DNA of 43,036 nt from the IMG/VR virus record IMGVR_UViG_2671180804_000003, positions 1 through 43,036 of that record; one strand, 5' to 3'. The position numbers were made by a program, and so were the translations under genes. This DNA comes from a virus. Taxonomy: Duplodnaviria; Heunggongvirae; Uroviricota; Caudoviricetes. How positions within the stretch are numbered: the stretch's first letter is position 1; each line of letters opens with the position of its first letter. Under the pieces are notes generated by a model that made no database searches, was not told the origin of the DNA, and was given only the letters and a program-made list of their open reading frames with translations. Positions 33,416-43,036 of the stretch are shown piece by piece.

Positions 33416-33975
33416 GCGTTAGTTTCTCCACTGATACGACACGCCAAGGCGCCCGGAGCTGCACACTCGCGGGCGTCACCTTTTCTGCCTGTTGAAACGA
33501 ATACGTCAATCGCCTGATCTGAAACACCAACCCCATAAAGCGCCATAAATCCCAGGAACCCGTGAATCTGGTGGCGGAGCTTCTTACTGAATAATTCTGA
33601 AAGCGTTTTGCGCTCTGATGAATCAATTACCCCATCAGCCGCTGCTGCCATCTTGGCATTAGCCAGCTCACCAGATGCTGCTGCCGCTTTCATCTCAATG
33701 CTGTACAGCTCAACGTTATCCAGGCTCTCAGCAGTTGGAACATCCACCAGCCATTTCCCTTTTCGGTTCGCCTGGTACTCGGCCAAGTAACAAGAACCAG
33801 ACAGGTCCTCCATCCGTTCCAGTTCTGCCAAGGTAAAGAACCGACTGCCACACTTCTGGTACAGGTGGTTGTGGAACTGGTCGATAGTCATCCCTAAATC
33901 GGAAGCCATACCTAAGCGACCATGCTTGTGTGCCTTACACATCAGGCGGATTGCTGTATTTATGCTGTCTACCAT
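33412..33975 (-). CDS. CII-like / YdaT-like regulatory protein
   Basis: Start at MVDSINTAIRLM; position directly after Cro-like gene as in Rac-type immunity regions. Confidence 0.45.
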   Translation of the reverse strand: MVDSINTAIRLMCKAHKHGRLGMASDLGMTIDQFHNHLYQKCGSRFFTLAELERMEDLSGSCYLAEYQANRKGKWLVDVPTAESLDNVELYSIEMKAAAASGELANAKMAAAADGVIDSSERKTLSELFSKKLRHQIHGFLGFMALYGVGVSDQAIDVFVSTGRKGDARECAAPGALACRISGETNA

Positions 33976-34001
33976 GTTGATTTCCCTCTGGTAGTTAATA
34001 A

Positions 34002-34016
34002 TCAACTTAAAGTTGA
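34002..34016. promoter_or_regulatory. Palindromic operator-like site TCAACTTAAAGTTGA
   Basis: Perfect 7-1-7 inverted repeat between Cro-like and CII-like genes; related to the sites at 34296 and 35169. Confidence 0.4.
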
Positions 34017-34264
34017 CTATTGTTGTTAGCGGAAGGTATGCCGTCATTTTTGTTCGGATAAATATCAGGTCGTAATTGATGGGGAGTTACTACCCATCCG
34101 CCCCATTGGCAGAGTTGAATAACTCTTTCAGAAGGTACTCGGTTCTTTGCAATCCAGTTCGCAACAGATTGAACTGATTGGAATTCAAACCGCCTTGATA
34201 CCTCTGAAATCGACCCGATCGCCTTCACAGCTTTAGCTGTTACATTCTTGTGTTGAGATGACAT
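34007..34264 (-). CDS. Cro-like repressor (YdaS/Cro family HTH)
   Basis: Start at MSSQHKNV; VANWIAKNRVPSERV...LRPDIY matches the YdaS/Cro pattern; divergent from cI-like gene. Confidence 0.7.
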   Translation of the reverse strand: MSSQHKNVTAKAVKAIGSISEVSRRFEFQSVQSVANWIAKNRVPSERVIQLCQWGGWVVTPHQLRPDIYPNKNDGIPSANNNSQL

Positions 34265-34295
34265 GTGTTCTCCTATGACTAAGCCTGCATCAATA

Positions 34296-34308
34296 CTACT
34301 TATAGTAG
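34296..34308. promoter_or_regulatory. Operator-like inverted repeat CTACT-TAT-AGTAG in cro/cI divergent promoter region
   Basis: Located between Cro-like start (34264) and cI-like start (34334); shares half-site with 35169 site. Confidence 0.45.
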
Positions 34309-34333
34309 CAATTATTAGCAACTTAAAATAGAA

Positions 34334-35053
34334 ATGACAACTATGCCTTGTGCGCTTAATCTTCTACTTATGGTGGAAAATGCTAAATACAAAGACTTTG
34401 CCGAAAGGCTAAACAGGTCTCTCCAAGAGCAATCTATTGGAGTTAAAGAATTGTCAGAGTTCAGTGGTGTCTCGTATGAGATGGCGCGGCGCTACACTCT
34501 TGGTACTGCAAAGCCGAGAGATGAGAAGATGATTCGAATTGCAGAAAGACTTGCCGTCTCACCGGCTTATCTTGATTATGGTGTGCCTGTTAATGGTGGC
34601 GACGCGCCAGCCAAAGGCACGGTCAGAATAGAGCAATTGGATGTTCATGCTTCAGCCGGTTCCGGATATATAAACCAACCATTCCCTACAATAGTGAGCT
34701 CAATAGAGATTCCAGAAGAGAGGATCTTCGAGTTGTTTGGTCGTAGAAGCCTTGATGGCATCGTCATGATAAATGTTGATGGCGATAGCATGATGCCCAC
34801 GCTTTGCCCAAAGGACCTGCTTTTCATAGACAGCAAGGTTGAACAATTCAGCGGCGACGGCGTTTATGTGTTCAATTTTGAAGACAGTACGTTCGTTAAA
34901 CGTTTGCAGAAGGTAAAAGGGCGCCGACTGGCAGTTCTTTCAGACAATGAACATTACCCGCCCTTCTTCATAGAGGAGCATGAAATGAATGAACTATACA
35001 TATTCGGCAAGCTAATCAGATGCTTACCTCTAAAAATGATAGAGTTTGGCTAA
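34334..35053 (+). CDS. CI-like repressor (XRE HTH plus S24 LexA-type autopeptidase domain)
   Basis: N-terminal HTH; C-terminal GDSMMPTL and FVKRL (Ser/Lys dyad); no SD upstream, consistent with a leaderless start. Confidence 0.85.
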   Translation: MTTMPCALNLLLMVENAKYKDFAERLNRSLQEQSIGVKELSEFSGVSYEMARRYTLGTAKPRDEKMIRIAERLAVSPAYLDYGVPVNGGDAPAKGTVRIEQLDVHASAGSGYINQPFPTIVSSIEIPEERIFELFGRRSLDGIVMINVDGDSMMPTLCPKDLLFIDSKVEQFSGDGVYVFNFEDSTFVKRLQKVKGRRLAVLSDNEHYPPFFIEEHEMNELYIFGKLIRCLPLKMIEFG

Positions 35054-35070
35054 TAATTAATTCATCAAGA

Positions 35071-35094
35071 AACCGGCGAAAGCCGGTTTTTTTT
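35071..35094 (+). terminator. Rho-independent terminator after cI-like gene
   Basis: AACCGGC-GAAA-GCCGGTT followed by T8. Confidence 0.65.
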
Positions 35095-35168
35095 ACGCCT
35101 CCAATTCCTCACCTCATAACACTACACTACTAAAAATTTCATTTTCTACTTTTTGTTGTTGCAATTAT

Positions 35169-35181
35169 CTACTTAAAGTAG
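35169..35181. promoter_or_regulatory. Operator-like perfect palindrome CTACTTAAAGTAG (OL-like)
   Basis: 6-1-6 inverted repeat upstream of the plus-strand early operon. Confidence 0.45.
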
Positions 35182-35297
35182 CTATAGTCATTGCATCGAA
35201 AGCGAACAGGCAGGACGCCCACGAAGTAGCCGCCGGTGGCATATGAATAACCGGATGATTCGCTGACAGAAAACTTAGGTTGGGGGTAGAGGTTTAC

Positions 35298-35663
35298 ATG
35301 AATCATTTATTCACATGCTCATTTTGCGGAGCAACCGAACTGGGAGCGATAAAGATCGTCGCAAAAGGTGGTAAGGACGAACCTGCCATCTGTTCGGAAT
35401 GCGTAGTCACATGTGTAGAAAAAATGATCCTGACTAAAAAATCAGAGGCTGAAAAACCAACCTCTGATAACGAAATAATATCAGTCGATAAAAAACTATT
35501 TAAAGAGCTTCTTCAGCTTGTCCTCAACCTTCCTGATTTCGGAAGTAAGCTGGCTGCTGTTGACATTGATAGTAGCTCCACATCGACAAGTGAAACTTTT
35601 GTTCGACTTGAGCCAAGCGATTTTCTTCTTCGTCTTAGTGCCGCACTTAGGGCATGCGGGTAA
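35298..35663 (+). CDS. Small protein with ClpX-type zinc-binding-like N-terminus
   Basis: CSFCG-x19-CSEC resembles the ClpX N-terminal zinc-binding domain; AGAGGT 4 nt upstream of ATG. Confidence 0.45.
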   Translation: MNHLFTCSFCGATELGAIKIVAKGGKDEPAICSECVVTCVEKMILTKKSEAEKPTSDNEIISVDKKLFKELLQLVLNLPDFGSKLAAVDIDSSSTSTSETFVRLEPSDFLLRLSAALRACG

Positions 35664-35693
35664 CGTAATTTCCTGGTTATCAAAAGCGCCCAT
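35496..35693 (-). CDS. Small zinc-ribbon-like protein, antisense and overlapping the 3' half of 35298-35663
   Basis: CPKCG-x17-CRCG motif; AGAGGG 6 nt upstream of second ATG. Confidence 0.3.
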   Translation of the reverse strand: MGAFDNQEITLPACPKCGTKTKKKIAWLKSNKSFTCRCGATINVNSSQLTSEIRKVEDKLKKLFK

Positions 35694-36005
35694 AAACATC
35701 CCTCTTGGTTGTGTGAGAACACCAAGATACCACCGCGCCTGATGTGGTTAAAAGCAGGCTAAAGCAATAACAAGTAACTCCCTGTTCTGGCGGCCCGGTG
35801 TTTTCCCGTGTATTTCCGGTAACCGCCAGCCTTTTTCAGGGCACAACAGAAAAGGGCATCACCGGGCGACGGGCTCATAACCCAATCCACCCGGGCAAAA
35901 AGAAAGCGGTCTCTGCAAGCCGCCGACCAATGCAGGTGCCCTTCTCTGTTGTGTATGGAGAAACTAACTTTTTAGCGTCTGTGCAGATGCGCTGAGGAAC
36001 CGAGA

Positions 36006-36923
36006 ATGAATAATCCGTTTTTCAAAAATATGTTGGTGTATCGCATTAGTCGCGATTTCACCATCAACCAGGAAGAGCTGGAACAGCAGCTTGAACTATT
36101 TCGCTTCACTCCATGCGGTAGCCAGGATATGGCAAAAACCGGTTGGGTATCACCACTTGGTCAGCTGTCAGATCGCTTGCATCACACTGTCAATAATCAA
36201 GTGTTGTTGGTTATTCGCCGGGAAGAAAAAATACTGCCATCTCCTGTCATTACTGAAGAACTGCGCAAGCGTGTGTCGCGTCTGGAATCCGATCAGGGGC
36301 GTCGCCTCAAAAAAACTGAGAAAGATTCGCTGCGTGATGAAGTGTTGCACTCCCTGCTTCCTCGGGCGTTCTCCAAAAACTCGACTGTTGGTTTGTGGAT
36401 CAACGTCACCGACGGTCTGATCATGGTTGATGCAGCCAGCGCTAAACGTGCCGAAGACTCACTGGCCCTGCTTCGTAAAACTCTCGGTTCTCTCCCGGTG
36501 GTACCGCTGACTATGGAAACGCCGATCGAACTAACTATGACCGACTGGGTTCGTTCCGGTAGTGCGCCTGCTGGCTTTGGCCTGGGTGATGAAGCCGAAC
36601 TGAAAGCTATTCTTGAAGATGGCGGTATTGGACGCTTTAAAAAACAGACTCTGGTCAGTGACGAAATTCATGTGCATCTGGAAGCTGGCAAAGTAGTTAC
36701 AAAGCTGTCTATCGACTGGCAACAGCGCATTCAGTTCGTTCTTTGCGATGACGGCAGCATCAAACGCCTTAAGTTCTCTAATGAGATTACAGAACAAAAC
36801 GACGATATCGACCGTGAGGATGCGGCTCAGCGGTTCGACGCTGACTTTGTTCTGATGACCGGCGAGCTTATCTCTCTCATTAACGGATTAACAACCTCTC
36901 TCGGCGGCGAAGCCAAGCGATAA
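36006..36923 (+). CDS. rdgC: Recombination-associated protein RdgC homologue
   Basis: 305 aa collinear with E. coli RdgC throughout ([60 protein letters not shown]). Confidence 0.9.
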
Positions 36924-37031
36924 ACACCAGGCAACAATTACCCCCATAAGCATGGGTTGGGTTGCTGCACGCTAAATTCAGCAATTCATTAATTTAATGG
37001 CGCGGTGCAGCGCGCCAATATGGAGAAAACC

Positions 37032-37571
37032 ATGAGCTACATTCAGACATTATCCGGCAAACACTTTAATTACCTCGATATCCAACAGGACGATATCGTC
37101 ATCGAGGATATTGCTACTGCGCTGTCTCATATCTGCCGTTTTGCTGGGCATCTTCCTGAGTTTTACAGCGTCGGCCAGCATAGCGTTTTAACCAGCCATC
37201 TCGTTCCGCAGGAGTTTGCCTTAGAAGCACTGCTTCATGATGCCGCCGAAGCCTACCTGCAAGATATTCCCTCACCGCTTAAGCGCCTGTTACCGGATTA
37301 CCAGGTGATCGAAGCTCGCGTAGACGCTGCTATTCGCCAGAAATTTGGCCTACCGACGGAGCAACACCCAACAGTGAAATATGCCGATCTGGTGATGCTC
37401 GCCAGCGAACGCCGCGATTTTGAGATTGACGAAGGTTCCGTGTGGCCATGCCTCGATGGCGTTGTCCCGACGGACCTATTCATCATCAATCCAGTTCGTC
37501 CAGGCCAGTCATACGGCATGTTCATAAATCGCTTTAATGAGTTGATGGAGCAGCGTCAATGCGCCGCATGA
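37032..37571 (+). CDS. HD-domain phosphohydrolase (YfdR-like)
   Basis: HD motif LLHDAAEAY; start MSYIQTL preceded by GGAG; resembles prophage YfdR-type HD proteins. Confidence 0.75.
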   Translation: MSYIQTLSGKHFNYLDIQQDDIVIEDIATALSHICRFAGHLPEFYSVGQHSVLTSHLVPQEFALEALLHDAAEAYLQDIPSPLKRLLPDYQVIEARVDAAIRQKFGLPTEQHPTVKYADLVMLASERRDFEIDEGSVWPCLDGVVPTDLFIINPVRPGQSYGMFINRFNELMEQRQCAA

Positions 37572-37735
37572 AGGTAAAAGAACTCGTGGCGGAGGCGTTT
37601 GCCTCCGTGGCTGAATTGCCACCAAAGCATGCATCGCTTATGCGCGAAGTCGCTACCAGGCTTGAAGCTACGTTCGCAGCATTAACCGAATCATTGGCGC
37701 AACTGGAACAGGAACGTAAAGGTAAAACGCAATGA
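37568..37735 (+). CDS. Small hypothetical protein (55 aa), translationally coupled
   Basis: ATGA overlap with upstream stop and with downstream start; below the 60-aa cutoff of the ORF track. Confidence 0.4.
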   Translation: MKVKELVAEAFASVAELPPKHASLMREVATRLEATFAALTESLAQLEQERKGKTQ

Positions 37736-37986
37736 CCGTATTTGAATATCTCCAGGGCCACCCGAACGCCACCAGCGGTGAAATCGCAAGGGCGATGGGT
37801 AAAAAGACGCCAGCCGTAGCCAGCGCACTATCTCAGCTTTATGCAACAGGGAGAATTGTTAAGTCTGGCGCACGCGGTGGGATACCGACATACCGCGTCA
37901 ATGATCTGCCGTTTGGATGCAGCAATAACTTAACGCTGATATTTAACCAGCTTCTGCGAAACGTCCGCAAAGGAGCAGCCCAATGA
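37732..37986 (+). CDS. Small putative winged-HTH protein
   Basis: 84 aa; TSGEIARAMGKKTPAVASALSQL helix-turn-helix-like segment. Confidence 0.45.
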   Translation: MTVFEYLQGHPNATSGEIARAMGKKTPAVASALSQLYATGRIVKSGARGGIPTYRVNDLPFGCSNNLTLIFNQLLRNVRKGAAQ

Positions 37987-38300
37987 GCAAATTTACGGCA
38001 TTACCAGTAGAACGCGACCAATACGGCTACTGGACTCACCCCGTCTATGAGCAATTTTGCGATGGTCGTGAATTTATCTCACCTGATGAGTTCAACGCCT
38101 GGCTGGATAAAAACGGCCTCGAATGGACGGTAGTTTACCGGGATGAAGAAGACATCGATCCTGAAGTTGATGGTTACGATATTTCAGCCTGGCAGCCAGA
38201 ATCGCCAGCCGGTGAAGGTTGGTTTGTCGGTTCAATTCACAACACCGAAGATGGCGCGGTATGCATCTGGTTACGTAACGTTGAAGGCGGTGCAGCATGA
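37983..38300 (+). CDS. Hypothetical protein
   Basis: 105 aa; overlapping start/stop with neighbours in early operon. Confidence 0.45.
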   Translation: MSKFTALPVERDQYGYWTHPVYEQFCDGREFISPDEFNAWLDKNGLEWTVVYRDEEDIDPEVDGYDISAWQPESPAGEGWFVGSIHNTEDGAVCIWLRNVEGGAA

Positions 38301-38653
38301 GCAAATCATTAAATGCACGCTGTATCCGCCGCTGGGAAGTTGAGTTCAAAGGCCTTTGTGATTCGAAGGTGAGTCCGTGGTGGAATAAGCGCGATCTCCG
38401 CGGCTATATCCGTGAATGCGCCCTGACAACTGCTGAATGCATGGTAGAGAGCCTGGCCTATAACAACGCAATGCATGATTTTTTTGCTGAAAACGGCGAT
38501 GACCGTGGCTGGTCTCCAGAATTCTCAGTTTGGTACGACAGCAGCCGTCGTGAGCAGTACAGGAAAGAAGCACTGAGCTACCTCAATGAAGAGGCCAGCA
38601 ACGACGAAATAGACGAAGAGATTCAGAACGAGCTGGAGGCCTGGAATGACTAA
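38297..38653 (+). CDS. Hypothetical protein (acidic C-terminus)
   Basis: 118 aa, coupled to flanking ORFs. Confidence 0.45.
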   Translation: MSKSLNARCIRRWEVEFKGLCDSKVSPWWNKRDLRGYIRECALTTAECMVESLAYNNAMHDFFAENGDDRGWSPEFSVWYDSSRREQYRKEALSYLNEEASNDEIDEEIQNELEAWND

Positions 38654-38915
38654 CTGCCCATCAACACCTAAACCTTTTCGCGCTGACGGCGGCGATATAA
38701 GCACTGGCCGCCTCAAAGAAATAGCGGACAATCCATACGGTGACGAAGAGAAATGCTGTCTGGCTAAGCGTGTGCTGGCGTCACTTGAAGTGGAGCCTGT
38801 GGCGTGGACTGATGCGGATGAATTGCGTGATGTAAAGAATGGAGGCAGCGGCTATCTGTTTGCTATTGGTGGTGAGGCCAATAAATTTGCTGATCCGCAC
38901 CGCCAACGCCGGTAG
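38646..38915 (+). CDS. Hypothetical protein
   Basis: 89 aa ORF in operon. Confidence 0.4.
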   Translation: MTNCPSTPKPFRADGGDISTGRLKEIADNPYGDEEKCCLAKRVLASLEVEPVAWTDADELRDVKNGGSGYLFAIGGEANKFADPHRQRR

Positions 38916-39343
38916 TGCCAGAAGAAATGCCAAAAGGTCTGGCTGGTCAGATTGTCAGTCTTCTGGCGCATAACATCGGGGATAAATTTTTGGCACAGAA
39001 AATCTGGAACGCCTGCCGCACCGCCATGCATCTGGGTGCCGAAAACACCGAGTCGCGCTGCACCATGCAGCCCGCGTCAGCATTAGATTCTTTGCCCTCA
39101 AATGCCGATTCGCGCTGCAGCAACTCTCCGGTGATTCCGGATGGTTGGAAACTGGTACCGATTGTGCCGACGGAGAAGATGGTTATCGAAGGCTTCGAGT
39201 CGGAGCCAGACGAATTCTTCAGTAAATCTGAAGTGTGGGAGGCGTATCAGAAAATGAGTGGCTGCGAACAAGCGGCGCATCGGGCCAAGTTATGCTGGGC
39301 AGCGATGATCTCAGCAGCACCACAACAGGAGGTGAAGCTGTGA
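38915..39343 (+). CDS. Hypothetical protein
   Basis: 142 aa ORF in operon. Confidence 0.4.
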   Translation: MPEEMPKGLAGQIVSLLAHNIGDKFLAQKIWNACRTAMHLGAENTESRCTMQPASALDSLPSNADSRCSNSPVIPDGWKLVPIVPTEKMVIEGFESEPDEFFSKSEVWEAYQKMSGCEQAAHRAKLCWAAMISAAPQQEVKL

Positions 39344-39579
39344 CTAAATCAGAATTCCTCCAGAAGGTAGCGGTGCTGGCCGGTGAATGCCATAAGTTGG
39401 CCTGTGAGCTGGACATAGGCGATGAACGAATAGAGATGTTCGAGATTTATGAAGTGCTTCGCCGAATCCAGCGGAGTGGTGCAGCCGGTGAAATGCTGGC
39501 TGCAACAAACCCTTTACTATCCCCTGGAATACCTGAGGACACTGAATGGGTAAATTTCCATAAAGAGGATGAGGCCTGA
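39340..39579 (+). CDS. Hypothetical protein (GTG start)
   Basis: About 79 aa from GTG overlapping upstream stop. Confidence 0.35.
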   Translation: MTKSEFLQKVAVLAGECHKLACELDIGDERIEMFEIYEVLRRIQRSGAAGEMLAATNPLLSPGIPEDTEWVNFHKEDEA

Positions 39580-39755
39580 TGCCTAAGACAATCATCATAA
39601 CCATCGAAATTGATGTTCCGGATCACGCTACCGATAGCGACATATCAGATTGGGTAGACGTCGAGTACGGGCAGTGTGGTGGACAAAAATTAGATAACCC
39701 CTGCCGTGGCGATGCCACTGAAGTAATAAACCATTCATGGAAATTTGAGAGCTAA
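39579..39755 (+). CDS. Small hypothetical protein (58 aa)
   Basis: ATG overlaps upstream stop; ends 3 nt before exonuclease gene. Confidence 0.3.
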   Translation: MPKTIIITIEIDVPDHATDSDISDWVDVEYGQCGGQKLDNPCRGDATEVINHSWKFES

Positions 39756-39757
39756 CG

Positions 39758-40330
39758 ATGAACGATTTAATGATTGACCTCGAATCAATGGGGAAAAAGC
39801 CAAACGCGCCGATCGTCTCAATTGGTGCCGTCTTTTTTAACCCTCAAACAGGTGAACTTGGCCAAGAATTCTACACGGCCGTCTCGCTTGAAAGCGCAAT
39901 GGCTCAAGGCGCGGTACCGGATGGAGATACAATTCTTTGGTGGCTAAAACAAAGCCCTGAGGCGCGCTCAGCTATTTGCGTTGATGATGCGATGCCTATC
40001 ACTGATGCACTGTCGGAACTTAGCCATTTCATTCACCGGCATGCATATAATCTCAAATACATGAAGGTCTGGGGTAACGGGGCCACCTTTGACAATGTGA
40101 TTCTGCGCGGAGCTTACGAACGCGCCGGACGCATTTGCCCGTGGGAATTTTGGAACGATCATGATGTACGCACGATTGTTACCCTCGGTCGCAGTGTTGG
40201 TTTCGATCCGAAGCGTGACATGCCTTTCATTGGCGATGTTCATAACGCCCTGGCTGATGCGCGCCATCAGGCAAAATATGTGTCAGCAATTTGGCAGAAA
40301 ATTATCCCTGCCACCAGCACCAACGAGTAA
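39758..40330 (+). CDS. 3'-5' exonuclease, DEDDh (DnaQ/RNase T-like) family
   Basis: MIDLES (Asp/Glu motif I) and HNALADARH (H-x4-D motif III). Confidence 0.7.
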   Translation: MNDLMIDLESMGKKPNAPIVSIGAVFFNPQTGELGQEFYTAVSLESAMAQGAVPDGDTILWWLKQSPEARSAICVDDAMPITDALSELSHFIHRHAYNLKYMKVWGNGATFDNVILRGAYERAGRICPWEFWNDHDVRTIVTLGRSVGFDPKRDMPFIGDVHNALADARHQAKYVSAIWQKIIPATSTNE

Positions 40331-40374
40331 ACCACTCAGCCCGGGTGCAGCCGGGCTTTATGGAGAAGGAAACC

Positions 40375-40584
40375 ATGGCAAAGCTAATGAAAGCGAGTCT
40401 CTGGAGTAAGCGCGAATTTACCAAAGACTCCATTCCTGACAACCGTACAATTAAACGTTGGGTCGAAAACGGATTACTCATGGGAAGGATTGTAGATGGT
40501 TCAGTTTTTGTCTATGAAACCGAAAAGTGGGGAGTTGACTCAATTGTTAATCAGGCGGTACGTCAGTTAATAATTGAGGGTTGA
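40375..40584 (+). CDS. xis: Excisionase (Xis)
   Basis: 69 aa; TIKRWVENGLLMGRIVDGSVFVYE resembles lambda Xis winged helix; GGAG before ATG; stop overlaps int start. Confidence 0.7.
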   Translation: MAKLMKASLWSKREFTKDSIPDNRTIKRWVENGLLMGRIVDGSVFVYETEKWGVDSIVNQAVRQLIIEG

Positions 40585-40586
40585 CC

Positions 40587-41768
40587 ATGGCAGCAAGGCC
40601 ACGAAAAAAAGAATACCGCCACCTTCCTGATTATCTTTTTTTTGATAAAGATCGTGGCGTGTATAAGTTCACGCTTATAACTGGGAAAAAGAAAACTCTC
40701 GGTTCGGATCGAGTAATGGCTATCGCCATCGCCCGAGAATATAACCTGAGGATGCGCCCTGAAAATACACCATCGATAGATTCATTAATTCGGGAATCGG
40801 GAGGGCTGAATGGTGAAGCCCACCCGTTTTCTGAACATGTTGATCGCATTATGGAGAGAGCGATCAAAGATGAGCAGCCGTCTAAAAGCACACTTGACGA
40901 TTGGAATAATGATGCCATCAGGGTTAAAGAATTTTTTAATAACATACCCGCATGCGATATTGAGCTTGAGCACGTAAATGCCTACATACGAAATTACCAT
41001 TCTGAATCGTCGGCCAATGTTCAGAACCGAAAAGTTAGCTTCCTGAAAAAGCTATTCTCTTATGCTGTTGATGAATCGCTAATGATGGATAACCCTGCAA
41101 CACGGAAAAAAATGCGGCGTGTCGATAAAAAGGTCCGCCGGCGACTCACTTTGGAACAGTTCTTGGCCATACATGCAGCTGCTGAACCTTGGCTGAAGAC
41201 TGCAATGGACCTTGCCATACAAACTACGCAAGCGCGCCTGGAAGTTTCCCGGATCCGGTACTCGATCAAGGAACCTCAAGAAGGGGTTTGCGGCTGTGTA
41301 TGGTTCGATCAGGAGGAGGCTGGCATATTCGGAACGCTTTACATTCACCGGCAAAAAGTGCAGCACAAAGAGGCTTCACACGTCGCTATTCCGATCGGCA
41401 GGGCCCTGAAAGAGATCATCGACAACAGCAGAGACAATGTGGCCAGTCCTTATGTTGTTCACCGGCTTCTGGAAAAGAGAAGCAATCCGATAAGTAAGGA
41501 AGTTAACCACCCAACACAGGTGGCCCCTGATTATTTGAGCAGGGCATTTTCAGAGCTGCGGGACCGGATAGGTGTAGCGGCAGAATTACCTATCAAAGAA
41601 AGGCCAACTTTCCACGAAATTAGAGCGCTGGCGGCTCATATTTTCGAAAGACAAGGTATCGATCCGCAGGCAAGGATGGCCCATAGTGATGCAAAATCGA
41701 CAAAAATTTATACCCAGAATCATGTTGAATGGGTTGAAGTACCACATGCAGAAATAAAAATGGCATAG
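40587..41768 (+). CDS. int: Tyrosine integrase, lambda Int family
   Basis: About 390 aa; N-terminal arm-binding-like region; C-terminal R...HxxR...Y region (HEIRALAAH, KIYTQNH). Confidence 0.9.
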   Translation: MAARPRKKEYRHLPDYLFFDKDRGVYKFTLITGKKKTLGSDRVMAIAIAREYNLRMRPENTPSIDSLIRESGGLNGEAHPFSEHVDRIMERAIKDEQPSKSTLDDWNNDAIRVKEFFNNIPACDIELEHVNAYIRNYHSESSANVQNRKVSFLKKLFSYAVDESLMMDNPATRKKMRRVDKKVRRRLTLEQFLAIHAAAEPWLKTAMDLAIQTTQARLEVSRIRYSIKEPQEGVCGCVWFDQEEAGIFGTLYIHRQKVQHKEASHVAIPIGRALKEIIDNSRDNVASPYVVHRLLEKRSNPISKEVNHPTQVAPDYLSRAFSELRDRIGVAAELPIKERPTFHEIRALAAHIFERQGIDPQARMAHSDAKSTKIYTQNHVEWVEVPHAEIKMA

Positions 41769-41792
41769 AAAAAGGCACCTGATGGTGCCTTG
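41768..41792 (-). terminator. Hairpin terminator at int stop (AGGCACC-tgat-GGTGCCT; T-run on minus strand)
   Basis: On the minus strand the stem is followed by TTTTTCT; also closes int on the plus strand. Confidence 0.45.
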
Positions 41793-41887
41793 AATAAAGT
41801 CTTGAATAAGACACCCGAAGGTGCCTTAAGTGGTTCTCTTAGCAACGAACTAAGAACGCCCACGCCTCATACCCATAATCATGAGCA

Positions 41888-41992
41888 TCAAGGACTTTTG
41901 CGGATTTCCCACGTACCTTGCGGTAACGGCAGAAAACCCAACGGAACCCTTTTGGTGCCGCTTTCGAAGCGATAGATTTCAAACTCATTCAT
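41888..41992 (-). CDS. Small ORF (34 aa) with strong Shine-Dalgarno; possibly a truncated gene at the attachment site
   Basis: TAAGGAGGTG 5 nt upstream of ATG; short ORF ending within the putative att region. Confidence 0.25.
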   Translation of the reverse strand: MNEFEIYRFESGTKRVPLGFLPLPQGTWEIRKSP

Positions 41993-42146
41993 GTAACACC
42001 TCCTTACCAAGAGAGATTTTTCCCTTGAACATCTTCCCTGAAGGTGTTAGTTTCAGGCTGTCTATTGAAGCTGTTCACGGTGGTGACGCCTCTCGGATTC
42101 ATCACCTTAAGACCCCTTGCATTGGTTGGCGCCAAGCAGGGGGTTT

Positions 42147-42668
42147 TTACATTTTGTCTAACTGATATCGTGCGGCCACTAATGATACTCCGCATGCCTC
42201 AGCTACATTTTCAGCACTCATACCTTTCAGAACATTGGCATGAATAGCCGGTACTAATAGCTCACCACTGAAACATTTGGCTTGCCACTCACTACTCTCA
42301 AAAGGGCGGATTTTTACCCCTGGAGCAGAACGCGCGAAAGCAATGTTCCTGTGCATGAGAAGATGTCCCAGTTCATGTGCGGCAGTCATCCTGTCACGCC
42401 CTACCCCATTCAAAGCACCCTCGTAAATGTCTTCACGAAGAATCAATAAATGTTCCTGTGGGTAGGTGAGACCGTGCGTCTCCCCCATTTCCTTCATCCC
42501 ACCGATATGGAGTTCAAAATCTGGGATCAACTGAGGCAATGCGAACTCAATCACCTCCATAACAGGAAACATCAGACCTGTAATACCGAAGGTGCTCCGC
42601 AGAGATCTGACGATAGAACGTATTGATTCGCGGTTCTGCGGGGGTACACGATAATCTTGTCCGCTCAA
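42147..42668 (-). CDS. ImmA/IrrE-family zinc metallopeptidase
   Basis: HExxH motif (AAHELGHLLMH); immediately downstream of XRE HTH gene. Confidence 0.8.
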   Translation of the reverse strand: MSGQDYRVPPQNRESIRSIVRSLRSTFGITGLMFPVMEVIEFALPQLIPDFELHIGGMKEMGETHGLTYPQEHLLILREDIYEGALNGVGRDRMTAAHELGHLLMHRNIAFARSAPGVKIRPFESSEWQAKCFSGELLVPAIHANVLKGMSAENVAEACGVSLVAARYQLDKM

Positions 42669-42676
42669 AATGCCTC

Positions 42677-43036
42677 CTACTGCTGTTTTCGATTCAAAAT
42701 CTGTCGTAAATTCCGGAAGTCTTCTTCATTTAACTCATCAAAACTACGAGCGAACGCAATTGCGACTTCACGAGCATGGTCGTTCTTACCTGACAAGCTG
42801 ATCTCTACTGATTGCTGAGAGTCACGAGCTGCACTGATAAGCTTTTCTTTTTGTTTTTCATCCGCATTCAGATAGCCAATGATGCTATCAAGCACGGGTT
42901 TAGTGACCGCCCTTTTACCAGTTTCGATTGCTGAAAGATAAGACGAGGTCATACCCATAGCCTCAGCCATGCTTTTAAGCGTAAGCCCCAGGTCTATGCG
43001 CATTTTTCTTACTGTCTTACCAAACGGCGTTAACAT
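42677..43036 (-). CDS. XRE-family HTH transcriptional regulator
   Basis: N-terminal HTH (LTLKSMAEAMGMTSSYLSAIETGKR); ATG at window edge. Confidence 0.8.
   Translation of the reverse strand: MLTPFGKTVRKMRIDLGLTLKSMAEAMGMTSSYLSAIETGKRAVTKPVLDSIIGYLNADEKQKEKLISAARDSQQSVEISLSGKNDHAREVAIAFARSFDELNEEDFRNLRQILNRKQQ

Follow-up and report, generated by a model that had tools for sequence, protein, structure and literature searches.

We read the segment described here, with fair confidence, as the early-left (PL) operon of a lambdoid prophage of E. coli that can be induced; the operon would be silent in the lysogen and on induction would supply an RdgC homologue, an HD-domain protein and a DEDDh exonuclease. 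It lies in a stretch of viral DNA of 43,036 nucleotides (the window; Table 1), and the xis/int region (40375-41768) forms the end of both the operon and the prophage. Identical DNA is present in E. coli ECONIH5, where rdgC and a 3'-5' exonuclease are annotated, and the order rdgC, HD gene, exonuclease, xis and int is also that of the isolated Salmonella phage F1055, in which two opposite-strand genes separate cI and rdgC. Related prophages were found as circular records of 43.7 kb next to their own chromosomal copy, which indicates that they excise. The gene set is already annotated in RefSeq and already described in a 2025 paper, and the finding is an ordinary one.

Table 1. Features of the early-left region, in window coordinates; promoter, operators and terminator are predicted.
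Feature	Position	Strand	Basis or remark
cro-like gene, divergent from cI	34007-34264	-	ORF list
Twin operator CTACTTATAGTAG between cI and cro	34296-34308		
cI-like repressor, LexA/S24 family	34334-35053	+	ORF list; RefSeq 'LexA family transcriptional regulator'
Intrinsic terminator immediately behind the stop codon of cI, AAGAAACCGGC-GAAA-GCCGGTTTTTT and U run	35067-35098	+	Sequence, inverted repeat
PL-like promoter, TTGCAA-N18-TATAGT	35159-35188	+	Promoter scan
Palindromic operator CTACTTAAAGTAG inside the PL-like promoter	35169-35181		
First ORF of the operon, 121 aa, N-terminal ClpX-type C4 zinc finger	35298-35663	+	Pfam, PHROG, RefSeq
Conserved, moderately structured leader	35664-35963	+	Alignments with ECONIH4 and L111; fold z=-2.3
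rdgC homologue, phage lineage, 305 aa	36006-36923	+	Within exchangeable cassette, ~35964 to 36950/37000 (limits from alignments of relatives)
YfdR-type HD-domain protein, 179 aa, H...HD...D ligands	37032-37571	+	ATG 37032 start preferred here and by RefSeq
Eight small coupled ORFs	37568-37735, 37732-37986, 37983-38300, 38297-38653, 38646-38915, 38927-39343, 39340-39579, 39579-39755	+	
DEDDh 3'-5' exonuclease, Rv2179c-like/T4 DexA family, 190 aa	39758-40330	+	
Small ORF in excisionase position	40375-40584	+	ORF list
Tyrosine integrase, overlapping the small ORF	40581-41768	+	ORF list; RefSeq integrase

An earlier note on this DNA had taken the genes for an early operon, and the predicted elements upstream agree with early expression under repressor control. 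The RNA fold of the cI terminator has an energy of -16 kcal/mol (z=-4.9), and none of 200 shuffles was as stable. The operator search gave 8 matches against 1.26 expected, and the only perfect palindromes are the two in the immunity region, one between cI and cro and the other within the promoter-like site that follows cI. The scan of 35188-39745 gave no further promoter-like site on the + strand. Since cI has a strong terminator and an operator-bearing PL-like promoter stands between cI and rdgC, repression of the operon genes in the lysogen is probable, as is their expression after induction. A structured leader of 342 bases lies between PL and rdgC, in which a hairpin and then CCUUUUUC occupy 35788-35836; its part from 35664 to 35963 contains an inverted repeat (35842-35858 and 35937-35953), has no Rfam match and is common to prophages that carry different cassettes. 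A possible gene is seen on the opposite strand at 35496-35699. Because of this possible gene and of the structured leader with its hairpin, read-through to rdgC may need an antiterminator.

The 305 amino acid protein had been described as collinear with E. coli RdgC, and this is borne out by an alignment to PDB 2OWL (residues 3-303) that has no gap and shows 67% identity (E=3.7e-135). The Pfam RdgC profile (PF04381) is matched at 298 of 298 positions (E=2e-115, 385.7 bits against a cut-off of 25), and the NCBIfam equivalog NF001460 is passed with 510.7 bits (cut-off 501). E. coli RdgC binds dsDNA as a toroidal dimer and inhibits functions of RecA, and its mutagenised gate, horseshoe and fingertip residues are listed in PMC2965237. 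All ten of these positions are kept in the prophage protein, with K98 changed to R. The gate residues R118 and F120 are identical at positions 120 and 122, as are the horseshoe interface residues Q212, E218, H222 and K227 at positions 214, 220, 224 and 229, whilst the fingertip R97, K98, K100 and K101 becomes R99, R100, K102 and K103 and so stays basic; in E. coli RdgC the basic fingertip is needed for loading onto circular DNA (PMC2965237). The AF2 monomer model has a pLDDT of 62, with residues 169-266 poorly predicted, and its sole significant PDB matches are 2OWL and 2OWY. Judged by its sequence, this is a full-length, true RdgC of the same length class as the E. coli protein, with a putative RdgC activity; its gene is located in a prophage PL operon and not at the chromosomal rdgC locus.

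The same protein had also been called near-host-like, which is too strong a description. Chromosomal RdgCs of Enterobacterales are 82-91% identical to each other, whereas the prophage RdgC is 58-71% identical to them, or 67-70% in the test of its clustering with them, and falls outside their clade, in a separate one with phage and prophage copies that includes those of phages KpF5 and F1055. Within this phage clade dN/dS is 0.04-0.49, indicating purifying selection. Because of the separate clade, the low identity to chromosomal RdgCs and the purifying selection, the gene belongs to an old phage lineage, and its recent capture from the host housekeeping rdgC was rejected. More distant is HrdC of phage P1 (PHROG 724, 'exonuclease recombination-associated'), a phage-borne RdgC homologue that is 56% identical to the prophage RdgC and keeps the same conserved residues. 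The hrdC gene likewise stands behind a repressor-controlled promoter, in an operon with a C1-repressor operator upstream. It is located between uhr and the dmt methyltransferase gene, whereas the prophage rdgC adjoins the HD gene, and P1, unlike the prophage here, is a plasmid prophage.

Another question is raised by the position of rdgC, which follows cI on the same strand within 1 kb. Lambda RexA has a distant fold relation to RdgC and is also encoded next to cI (PMC11077077), and a RexA-like role was suggested for the RdgC genes that adjoin cI in lambdoids, with RdgC possibly in the cI transcript (PMC12315714). The protein would then be made from the cI transcript in the lysogen, and it would either take part in superinfection exclusion or tilt the choice between lysis and lysogeny. 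In vitro, RecA-dependent cleavage of LexA is inhibited by E. coli RdgC, as cited in PMC11077077, and the prophage repressor is LexA-like. However, lambda RexA shares the transcript of cI and has RexB as its partner, whereas here the predicted strong terminator and operator-bearing PL lie between cI and rdgC, and the gene downstream encodes an HD enzyme and no RexB-type partner. The protein is, moreover, a true RdgC with its ring-interface and finger residues kept, and P1 hrdC is repressor-controlled. A RexA-like role is thus improbable. As a candidate, a lambda RexA/RexB-type exclusion module was rejected on the terminator and operator-bearing promoter before the operon and on the HD enzyme next to rdgC.

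The YfdR-like HD phosphohydrolase and the DnaQ-like exonuclease that had been reported in the operon are both found there. The HD protein aligns without gaps to K-12 YfdR over 178 amino acids with 63% identity, and the QH, HD, E, D and YAD positions are conserved, the HD dyad being H68-D69; for its start an earlier reading had used GTG 37005. It matches phrog_318 (E=3e-96) and an HD protein of known structure, PDB 2GZ4 (E=2.8e-13). The Pfam YfbR-like cut-off is not reached (20.6 against 25.9 bits, over residues 63-114 alone), and on these comparisons the protein is a YfdR orthologue that belongs to the YfdR branch and not to YfbR proper. K-12 YfdR was described as a YfbR-like 5'-deoxynucleotidase with low nucleotide affinity and as a DnaA-binding protein, and dNMP phosphatase activity and DnaA binding are known for this K-12 protein only (PMC4776307). 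The exonuclease covers 177 of 177 positions of the Pfam Rv2179c-like profile (PF16473; E=2.5e-72, 242.7 bits against a cut-off of 27), and it carries the motifs Exo I (DxE, D7/E9), Exo II (F111-D112) and Exo III (H-x4-D, H162/D167). It matches phrog_255 and PDB 8KEL, which is T4 DexA (E=1e-9). Full-length family coverage and DEDDh motifs are common to T4 DexA, M. tuberculosis Rv2179c and the prophage protein, but the identity to T4 dexA is just 27.7%, over residues 1-139, and we regard the protein as a putative nuclease of DNA or RNA.

Several small ORFs had been noted between these two genes, and eight are present. They are separated by overlaps of 4 or 8 bases or by gaps of at most 11 bases, an arrangement by which they are translationally coupled as read from the DNA, and from the HD gene through to the exonuclease neighboring genes overlap or almost touch. 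All match PHROGs of unknown function and are hypothetical proteins in RefSeq, and the one at 37732-37986 is a winged-helix protein. The first ORF of the operon matches Pfam zf-C4_ClpX slightly below its threshold (E=7.6e-6, 26.2 bits against 27) and phrog_20296 (E=3e-68), whilst the small ORF in the excisionase position has neither a Pfam nor a PHROG match.

A role of these genes in nucleotide-based defence signalling had also been proposed, with the HD hydrolase, the exonuclease or both acting against defence by breaking down nucleotide second messengers or further nucleic-acid signals of host immunity. The HD superfamily includes cyclic-nucleotide phosphodiesterases, and early-left operons often carry counter-defence genes. 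The exonuclease weakly matches a generic Cas-associated DEDDh model of PADLOC (E=2.8e-4), a collection whose models describe defence and not anti-defence systems, and the other nine proteins tested have no PADLOC match. Against this proposal, the HD protein is a YfdR orthologue in a YfbR-like 5'-deoxynucleotidase branch (PMC4776307), and the exonuclease belongs to the Rv2179c/DexA family, which is widespread, with 1671 phage records. Neither a cyclase nor a sensor or effector gene is located near the operon, and we found no literature tying YfdR-type HD or DexA-type families to signal degradation. We consider this role very unlikely, as no result obtained here supports it.

With respect to recombination, a tblastn search (E<=1e-3) of the window and of 159 related loci gave no homologue of lambda Exo/Bet/Gam, Rac RecT/RecE or P22 Erf/Abc1/Abc2. 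Chi sites are abundant, 23 in the window against 1.7 expected, with 18 of the 23 on one strand, and the density in the related loci is 0.52-0.60 Chi per kb. Because of the missing Rec module and the Chi enrichment, the prophage matches the published 'LLS functional type' of lambdoids (PMC12315714), a paper that already noted the location of RdgC close to cI and of DnaQ-type nucleases close to int. In those phages, as here, RdgC is located just left of cI, the DnaQ-type nuclease adjoins int and a yfdR-like HD gene is present. Their RdgC was suggested to be part of the cI transcript, whereas in the prophage here a predicted terminator and PL separate the two genes.

The mechanism that we propose for the PL operon starts in the lysogen, where the LexA-like cI repressor would occupy the operator within the PL-like promoter, whilst transcription of cI would halt at its own terminator, so that the operon would stay silent until induction. 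It would then supply three accessory DNA-metabolism proteins. By analogy with the E. coli protein, the phage-lineage RdgC most likely encircles dsDNA regardless of its sequence and dampens the activities of RecA filaments, both strand exchange and coprotease function. It would act during phage DNA replication, in a cell on whose RecBCD-Chi-RecA pathway the phage relies, and in this sense the earlier suggestion that it modulates host recombination is a reasonable one. The YfdR-type HD protein would by homology be a weak 5'-deoxynucleotidase able to bind DnaA domain I, and the third product would be a DexA-like DEDDh 3'-5' exonuclease whose gene adjoins xis and int. Whilst the identity of the genes, the structure of the operon and the behavior of its cassette come from the data themselves, these biochemical activities and the benefit to the phage are taken from homologues. 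A RecA inhibitor has no obvious fit in a phage that apparently depends on host RecA-mediated recombination.

It could also be argued that such genes are functionless passengers of a decaying prophage, as P1 hrdC is dispensable, being non-essential in a CRISPRi screen (PMC10695390), and deletion of yfdQRST in K-12 has no phenotype (PMC4776307). Yet none of the ORFs is disrupted and their translation is coupled, purifying selection acts on rdgC, whose functional residues are kept, the layout recurs in isolated phages and excised circles of related prophages occur, so that this explanation is the least likely that we weighed.

What is modestly new is the behavior of the slot upstream of the HD gene, which on near-identical backbones holds the prophage RdgC, a second RdgC that is 21% identical to it, or YfdP and YfdQ. 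Alignments with ECONIH4 and L111 place the left cassette junction at ~35963, and near-identical backbones share exact junctions. Among 80 HD loci the slot contains YfdP and YfdQ in 57, the prophage-type RdgC in 12, the 21%-identical RdgC in 6, while the other 5 have no RdgC and no YfdP/YfdQ there; RdgC and YfdPQ never occur together. Conversely, the HD gene directly follows rdgC in 53 of 80 phage RdgC loci, with HD identities of 62-100%.

One possible option is that RdgC and the adjacent HD protein form a two-gene unit for host takeover. The HD protein would bind DnaA and block initiation at oriC, and the upstream DNA-binding partner (RdgC, or elsewhere YfdP and YfdQ) would be needed for this block or would suppress RecA-dependent restart, so that host replication stops and phage DNA replicates. 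The mutual exclusion, the exact junctions and the frequent adjacency fit this option, as does the observation that in K-12 multicopy yfdQ and yfdR together with yfdS or yfdT inhibit oriC initiation, YfdR binding DnaA Phe46 (PMC4776307). In a broader form, the slot in Chi-rich lambdoids lacking a Rec module would be functionally constrained and filled by interchangeable DNA-binding partners, that is, two very different RdgC lineages or YfdP and YfdQ. Together with a DnaA-binding HD protein, these would make up a unit for the takeover of host replication and recombination, which steers RecA and the replication-restart machinery toward Chi/RecBCD-dependent phage replication. Mosaic cassette exchange is, however, common in lambdoid phages and need not mean that the cassettes are equivalent in function. 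A profile comparison of RdgC with YfdQ gave no similarity (hhalign probability 0.05), the HD gene is absent from 27 of the 80 RdgC loci, and no homologue of YfdS, YfdT or TorI is found in the window; the K-12 yfdQRST deletion, as mentioned, has no phenotype. Both the two-gene unit and its broader form are speculative and, in our view, equally unlikely.

The slot can also be compared with the yfdP-yfdQ-yfdR-yfdS-yfdT cluster of K-12 CPS-53 (PMC4776307). There yfdR has the same early-left position as the prophage HD gene, upstream of xis (torI) and int. In CPS-53, as in phage LLS, yfdP and yfdQ are located upstream of the HD gene, where the prophage here carries rdgC instead.

A lambdoid E. coli prophage makes up the window, and the stretch from 36006 to 40330 is 100% identical to positions 4081340-4085664 of the E. 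coli ECONIH5 chromosome, where RefSeq lists rdgC, a 'phage protein', eight products named as hypothetical and a '3'-5' exonuclease' ahead of a small ORF and the integrase. Gene identity and operon structure are directly observed. In the run of genes that starts with the HD gene and ends with the exonuclease, the junctions show overlaps of 1-8 bases or a spacing of at most 11 bases and, because neighbours overlap or nearly abut, this part can be regarded as one translationally coupled unit. The operon is real and was correctly described in the earlier note, but it is ordinary, and both its annotation and its discussion in print predate this analysis; RefSeq already names its genes and the finding as stated adds little.

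Features of the early-left operon and its surroundings (window coordinates unless a locus is named)
Feature	Position	Strand	Remark
cI-like LexA/S24 repressor	34334-35053	+	
ClpX-type zinc-finger ORF	35298-35663	+	
342-base gap	between zinc-finger ORF and rdgC		
rdgC	36006-36923	+	
HD protein	37032-37571	+	
Eight small ORFs	37568-39755	+	
DEDDh exonuclease	39758-40330	+	
ORF in xis position	40375-40584	+	
Integrase	40581-41768	+	
Second RdgC, 305 aa	L111:4976-5893 (IMG/VR UViG 2909288124_000003)		also in the related loci L095, L112, L116, L124 and L125

The identities of RdgC, the HD protein and the exonuclease were confirmed by profile, alignment and motif matches. RdgC covers the whole Pfam RdgC model (E=2e-115), passes the NCBIfam equivalog cut-off and aligns without gaps to E. 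coli RdgC (PDB 2OWL) with 67% identity. Ten positions of E. coli RdgC were mutated by Briggs et al. (PMC2965237), in the fingertip (R97, K98, K100, K101), the gate (R118, F120) and the horseshoe interface (Q212, E218, H222, K227), and all ten are kept in the window protein, the sole change being K98 to R. The description of this protein as near-host-like is too strong. Chromosomal RdgCs of E. coli, Klebsiella, Cronobacter, Atlantibacter, Serratia and Lonsdalea are mutually 82-91% identical whereas the window RdgC shows only 67-70% identity to them, and it groups instead with prophage and phage copies of 305-309 aa, such as those of Klebsiella phage KpF5 (74% identity in the alignment, 73% by tblastn) and Salmonella phage F1055 (71% by both). 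HrdC, the RdgC homologue of phage P1 that has been recognised as such for two decades, falls outside both the chromosomal and the phage groups (57%). Inside the phage clade dN/dS is 0.04-0.49, 353 phage records hold RdgC homologues, and the window allele is found in 33/5426 complete E. coli genomes, one of them that of the probiotic strain Nissle 1917. Judged from these comparisons, the window RdgC belongs to an old, selected phage lineage and is no fresh host capture. As this lineage keeps the ring and finger residues, it has probably preserved the RecA-modulating biochemistry; no experimental work on an RdgC from a phage turned up in literature searches.

The HD protein is orthologous to YfdR, with 63% gapless identity to K-12 YfdR over 178 residues and matches to phrog_318 and the PDB HD protein 2GZ4; its score for Pfam YfbR-like is under threshold. 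The exonuclease covers the whole Pfam Rv2179c-like model (E=2.5e-72), has the motifs DxE, FD and H-x4-D, and is a distant relative of T4 DexA. A role in nucleotide-based defence signalling, as proposed in the earlier note, finds no support, because orthology ties the HD protein to YfdR, the exonuclease family is widespread (1671 phage records) and the PADLOC result is essentially empty, with a single weak DEDDh match. No YfdS, YfdT or TorI homologues were found in the window. A recurrent link between RdgC and a nucleotide hydrolase across phage groups was also considered and dropped, since P1 uhr is labelled 'nucleoside triphosphate pyrophosphohydrolase' in its record but has no Pfam match.

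One new point comes from the slot upstream of the HD gene. In ECONIH4, an otherwise near-identical prophage carries YfdP- and YfdQ-family genes in the place of rdgC, with cassette junctions at ~35963 and 37000. Among 80 phage RdgC loci in IMG/VR the HD gene lies directly 3' of RdgC in 53, and YfdP or YfdQ occurs in none. When 80 HD loci in IMG/VR were taken instead, the slot held YfdP and YfdQ in 57/80, the window-type RdgC in 12/80, a second RdgC that shares just 21% identity with it in 6/80, and neither RdgC nor YfdP/YfdQ in 5/80. This second RdgC (Pfam RdgC E=7e-33, phrog_724 E=1.6e-75) fills the exact rdgC slot, shares the left junction of the window cassette and sits among the repressor, zinc-finger ORF and HD gene that the window backbone also has; its gate residues are kept and its horseshoe residues are not all kept. 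By their position in these genomes, RdgC, the distant second RdgC and YfdP plus YfdQ are alternative cassettes before a shared HD gene in phages that are rich in Chi and have no Rec module. It is conceivable that the HD protein has a paired function with whichever partner sits upstream, since multicopy yfdQ and yfdR together with yfdS or yfdT block oriC initiation in K-12 and K-12 YfdR binds DnaA (PMC4776307). Yet, no resemblance between RdgC and YfdQ in sequence or fold could be demonstrated: hhalign of shallow profiles gave a probability of 0.05, the mediocre AF2 model of RdgC (pLDDT 62) matched only 2OWL and 2OWY in a Foldseek search of the PDB, and the poor YfdQ model (pLDDT 52) gave meaningless Hsp90 matches and missed the YfdQ entry 9O7M. 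This entry is a solved structure of a large assembly, with 36 chains. The three-way alternation offers a concrete swap experiment on the function of unstudied genes.

Another addition, like the alternation a minor one, is the placement of rdgC behind a predicted early-left promoter. A hairpin with a U-run (-16 kcal/mol, z=-4.9) lies immediately 3' of the cI stop codon. A perfect 13-base palindrome, CTACTTATAGTAG, is located between cI and the cro-like gene, and its near-twin CTACTTAAAGTAG at 35169-35181 lies within a promoter-like TTGCAA-N18-TATAGT that points into the operon; the promoter scan gave no other + strand promoter-like sites before 39745. We infer that the second palindrome and the predicted promoter are OL and PL, the operator and promoter of the early-left operon, in which case the operon, rdgC included, would be repressed in the lysogen and expressed upon induction. 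This agrees with phage P1, where the hrdC operon lies behind a C1 operator, and with phage F1055, where two opposite-strand genes separate cI from rdgC. It is relevant to the proposal in the literature that the rdgC genes of lambdoid phages may belong to the cI transcript, as rexA does, and may act in a RexA-like way (PMC12315714); in this prophage rdgC lies behind the predicted PL and would be outside the cI transcript, which counts against such a reading, at least here.

Between the zinc-finger ORF and the cassette junction lies a conserved, structured leader (35664-35963, z=-2.3) that is common to prophages with rdgC, the second RdgC type or yfdPQ; it is whole in the yfdPQ prophage of ECONIH4 and present only from ~35842 onward in the L111 type, which carries the second RdgC. 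It contains a 17-nt inverted repeat (35842-35858 / 35937-35953) and, as it is structured, with a hairpin and then CCUUUUUC, antitermination may be needed for read-through of the operon. The leader corresponds to no known RNA family, as a search of 33900-42200 at E<=1 gave no Rfam match. The - strand of the leader holds GCCCTGAAAAAGGC, a near-perfect likeness of lambda boxB; this GAAAA-loop version was rejected as a boxB because it lies on the wrong strand. The zinc-finger ORF, the first behind PL, has its ClpX-type C4 finger at the N-terminus, and an unannotated zinc-ribbon ORF of 67 aa (35699-35496, - strand, CPKCG...CRCG) overlaps its C-terminal half and leads into a strong terminator with a 12-bp stem (35468-35441, - strand).

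The window and 159 related loci gave no tblastn match to lambda Exo/Bet/Gam, Rac RecT/RecE or P22 Erf/Abc1/Abc2. Chi sites (GCTGGTGG) number 23 in the window against 1.7 expected from shuffles (for example at 1858, 3978, 9459 and 40311), 18/23 of them on the - strand, and the related loci, at 0.52-0.60 Chi per kb, are biased to the same strand. In E. coli there is roughly 0.2 Chi per kb. The prophage fits the 'LLS functional type' of a 2025 lambdoid survey, that is, lambdoid phages without a Rec module that are Chi-rich and RecBCD-dependent (PMC12315714). The same survey describes RdgC adjoining cI, DnaQ-type nucleases adjoining int, and yfdR/yfdQ/yfdP-like genes in early-left operons. The best-supported reading, with activities taken from homologues, is that upon induction PL would express accessory DNA-metabolism functions: an RdgC-type ring that would bind dsDNA and damp RecA activities, an HD nucleotidase of YfdR type that would also bind DnaA, and a 3'-5' exonuclease resembling DexA.

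Two RefSeq 'plasmids' of 43.7 kb (NZ_CP081704.1 and NZ_CP081794.1) each represent the full circular form of a related prophage that carries rdgC. The first is E. coli AH02 'plasmid unnamed3' (L167, circular, 43,680 bp), on which a type II restriction-modification pair and a DinI-like gene are also found. Because AH02 has the circle in addition to a chromosomal copy, the related prophage excises or replicates in culture. Just past the window integrase, at 42147-43036 on the - strand, are an ImmA/IrrE-family metallopeptidase (Peptidase_M78, E=3.6e-9) and an HTH protein, which could form an element of their own at the attachment site; the pair is likewise found beyond the integrase in ECONIH4, and in ECONIH5 ppx directly follows the integrase.
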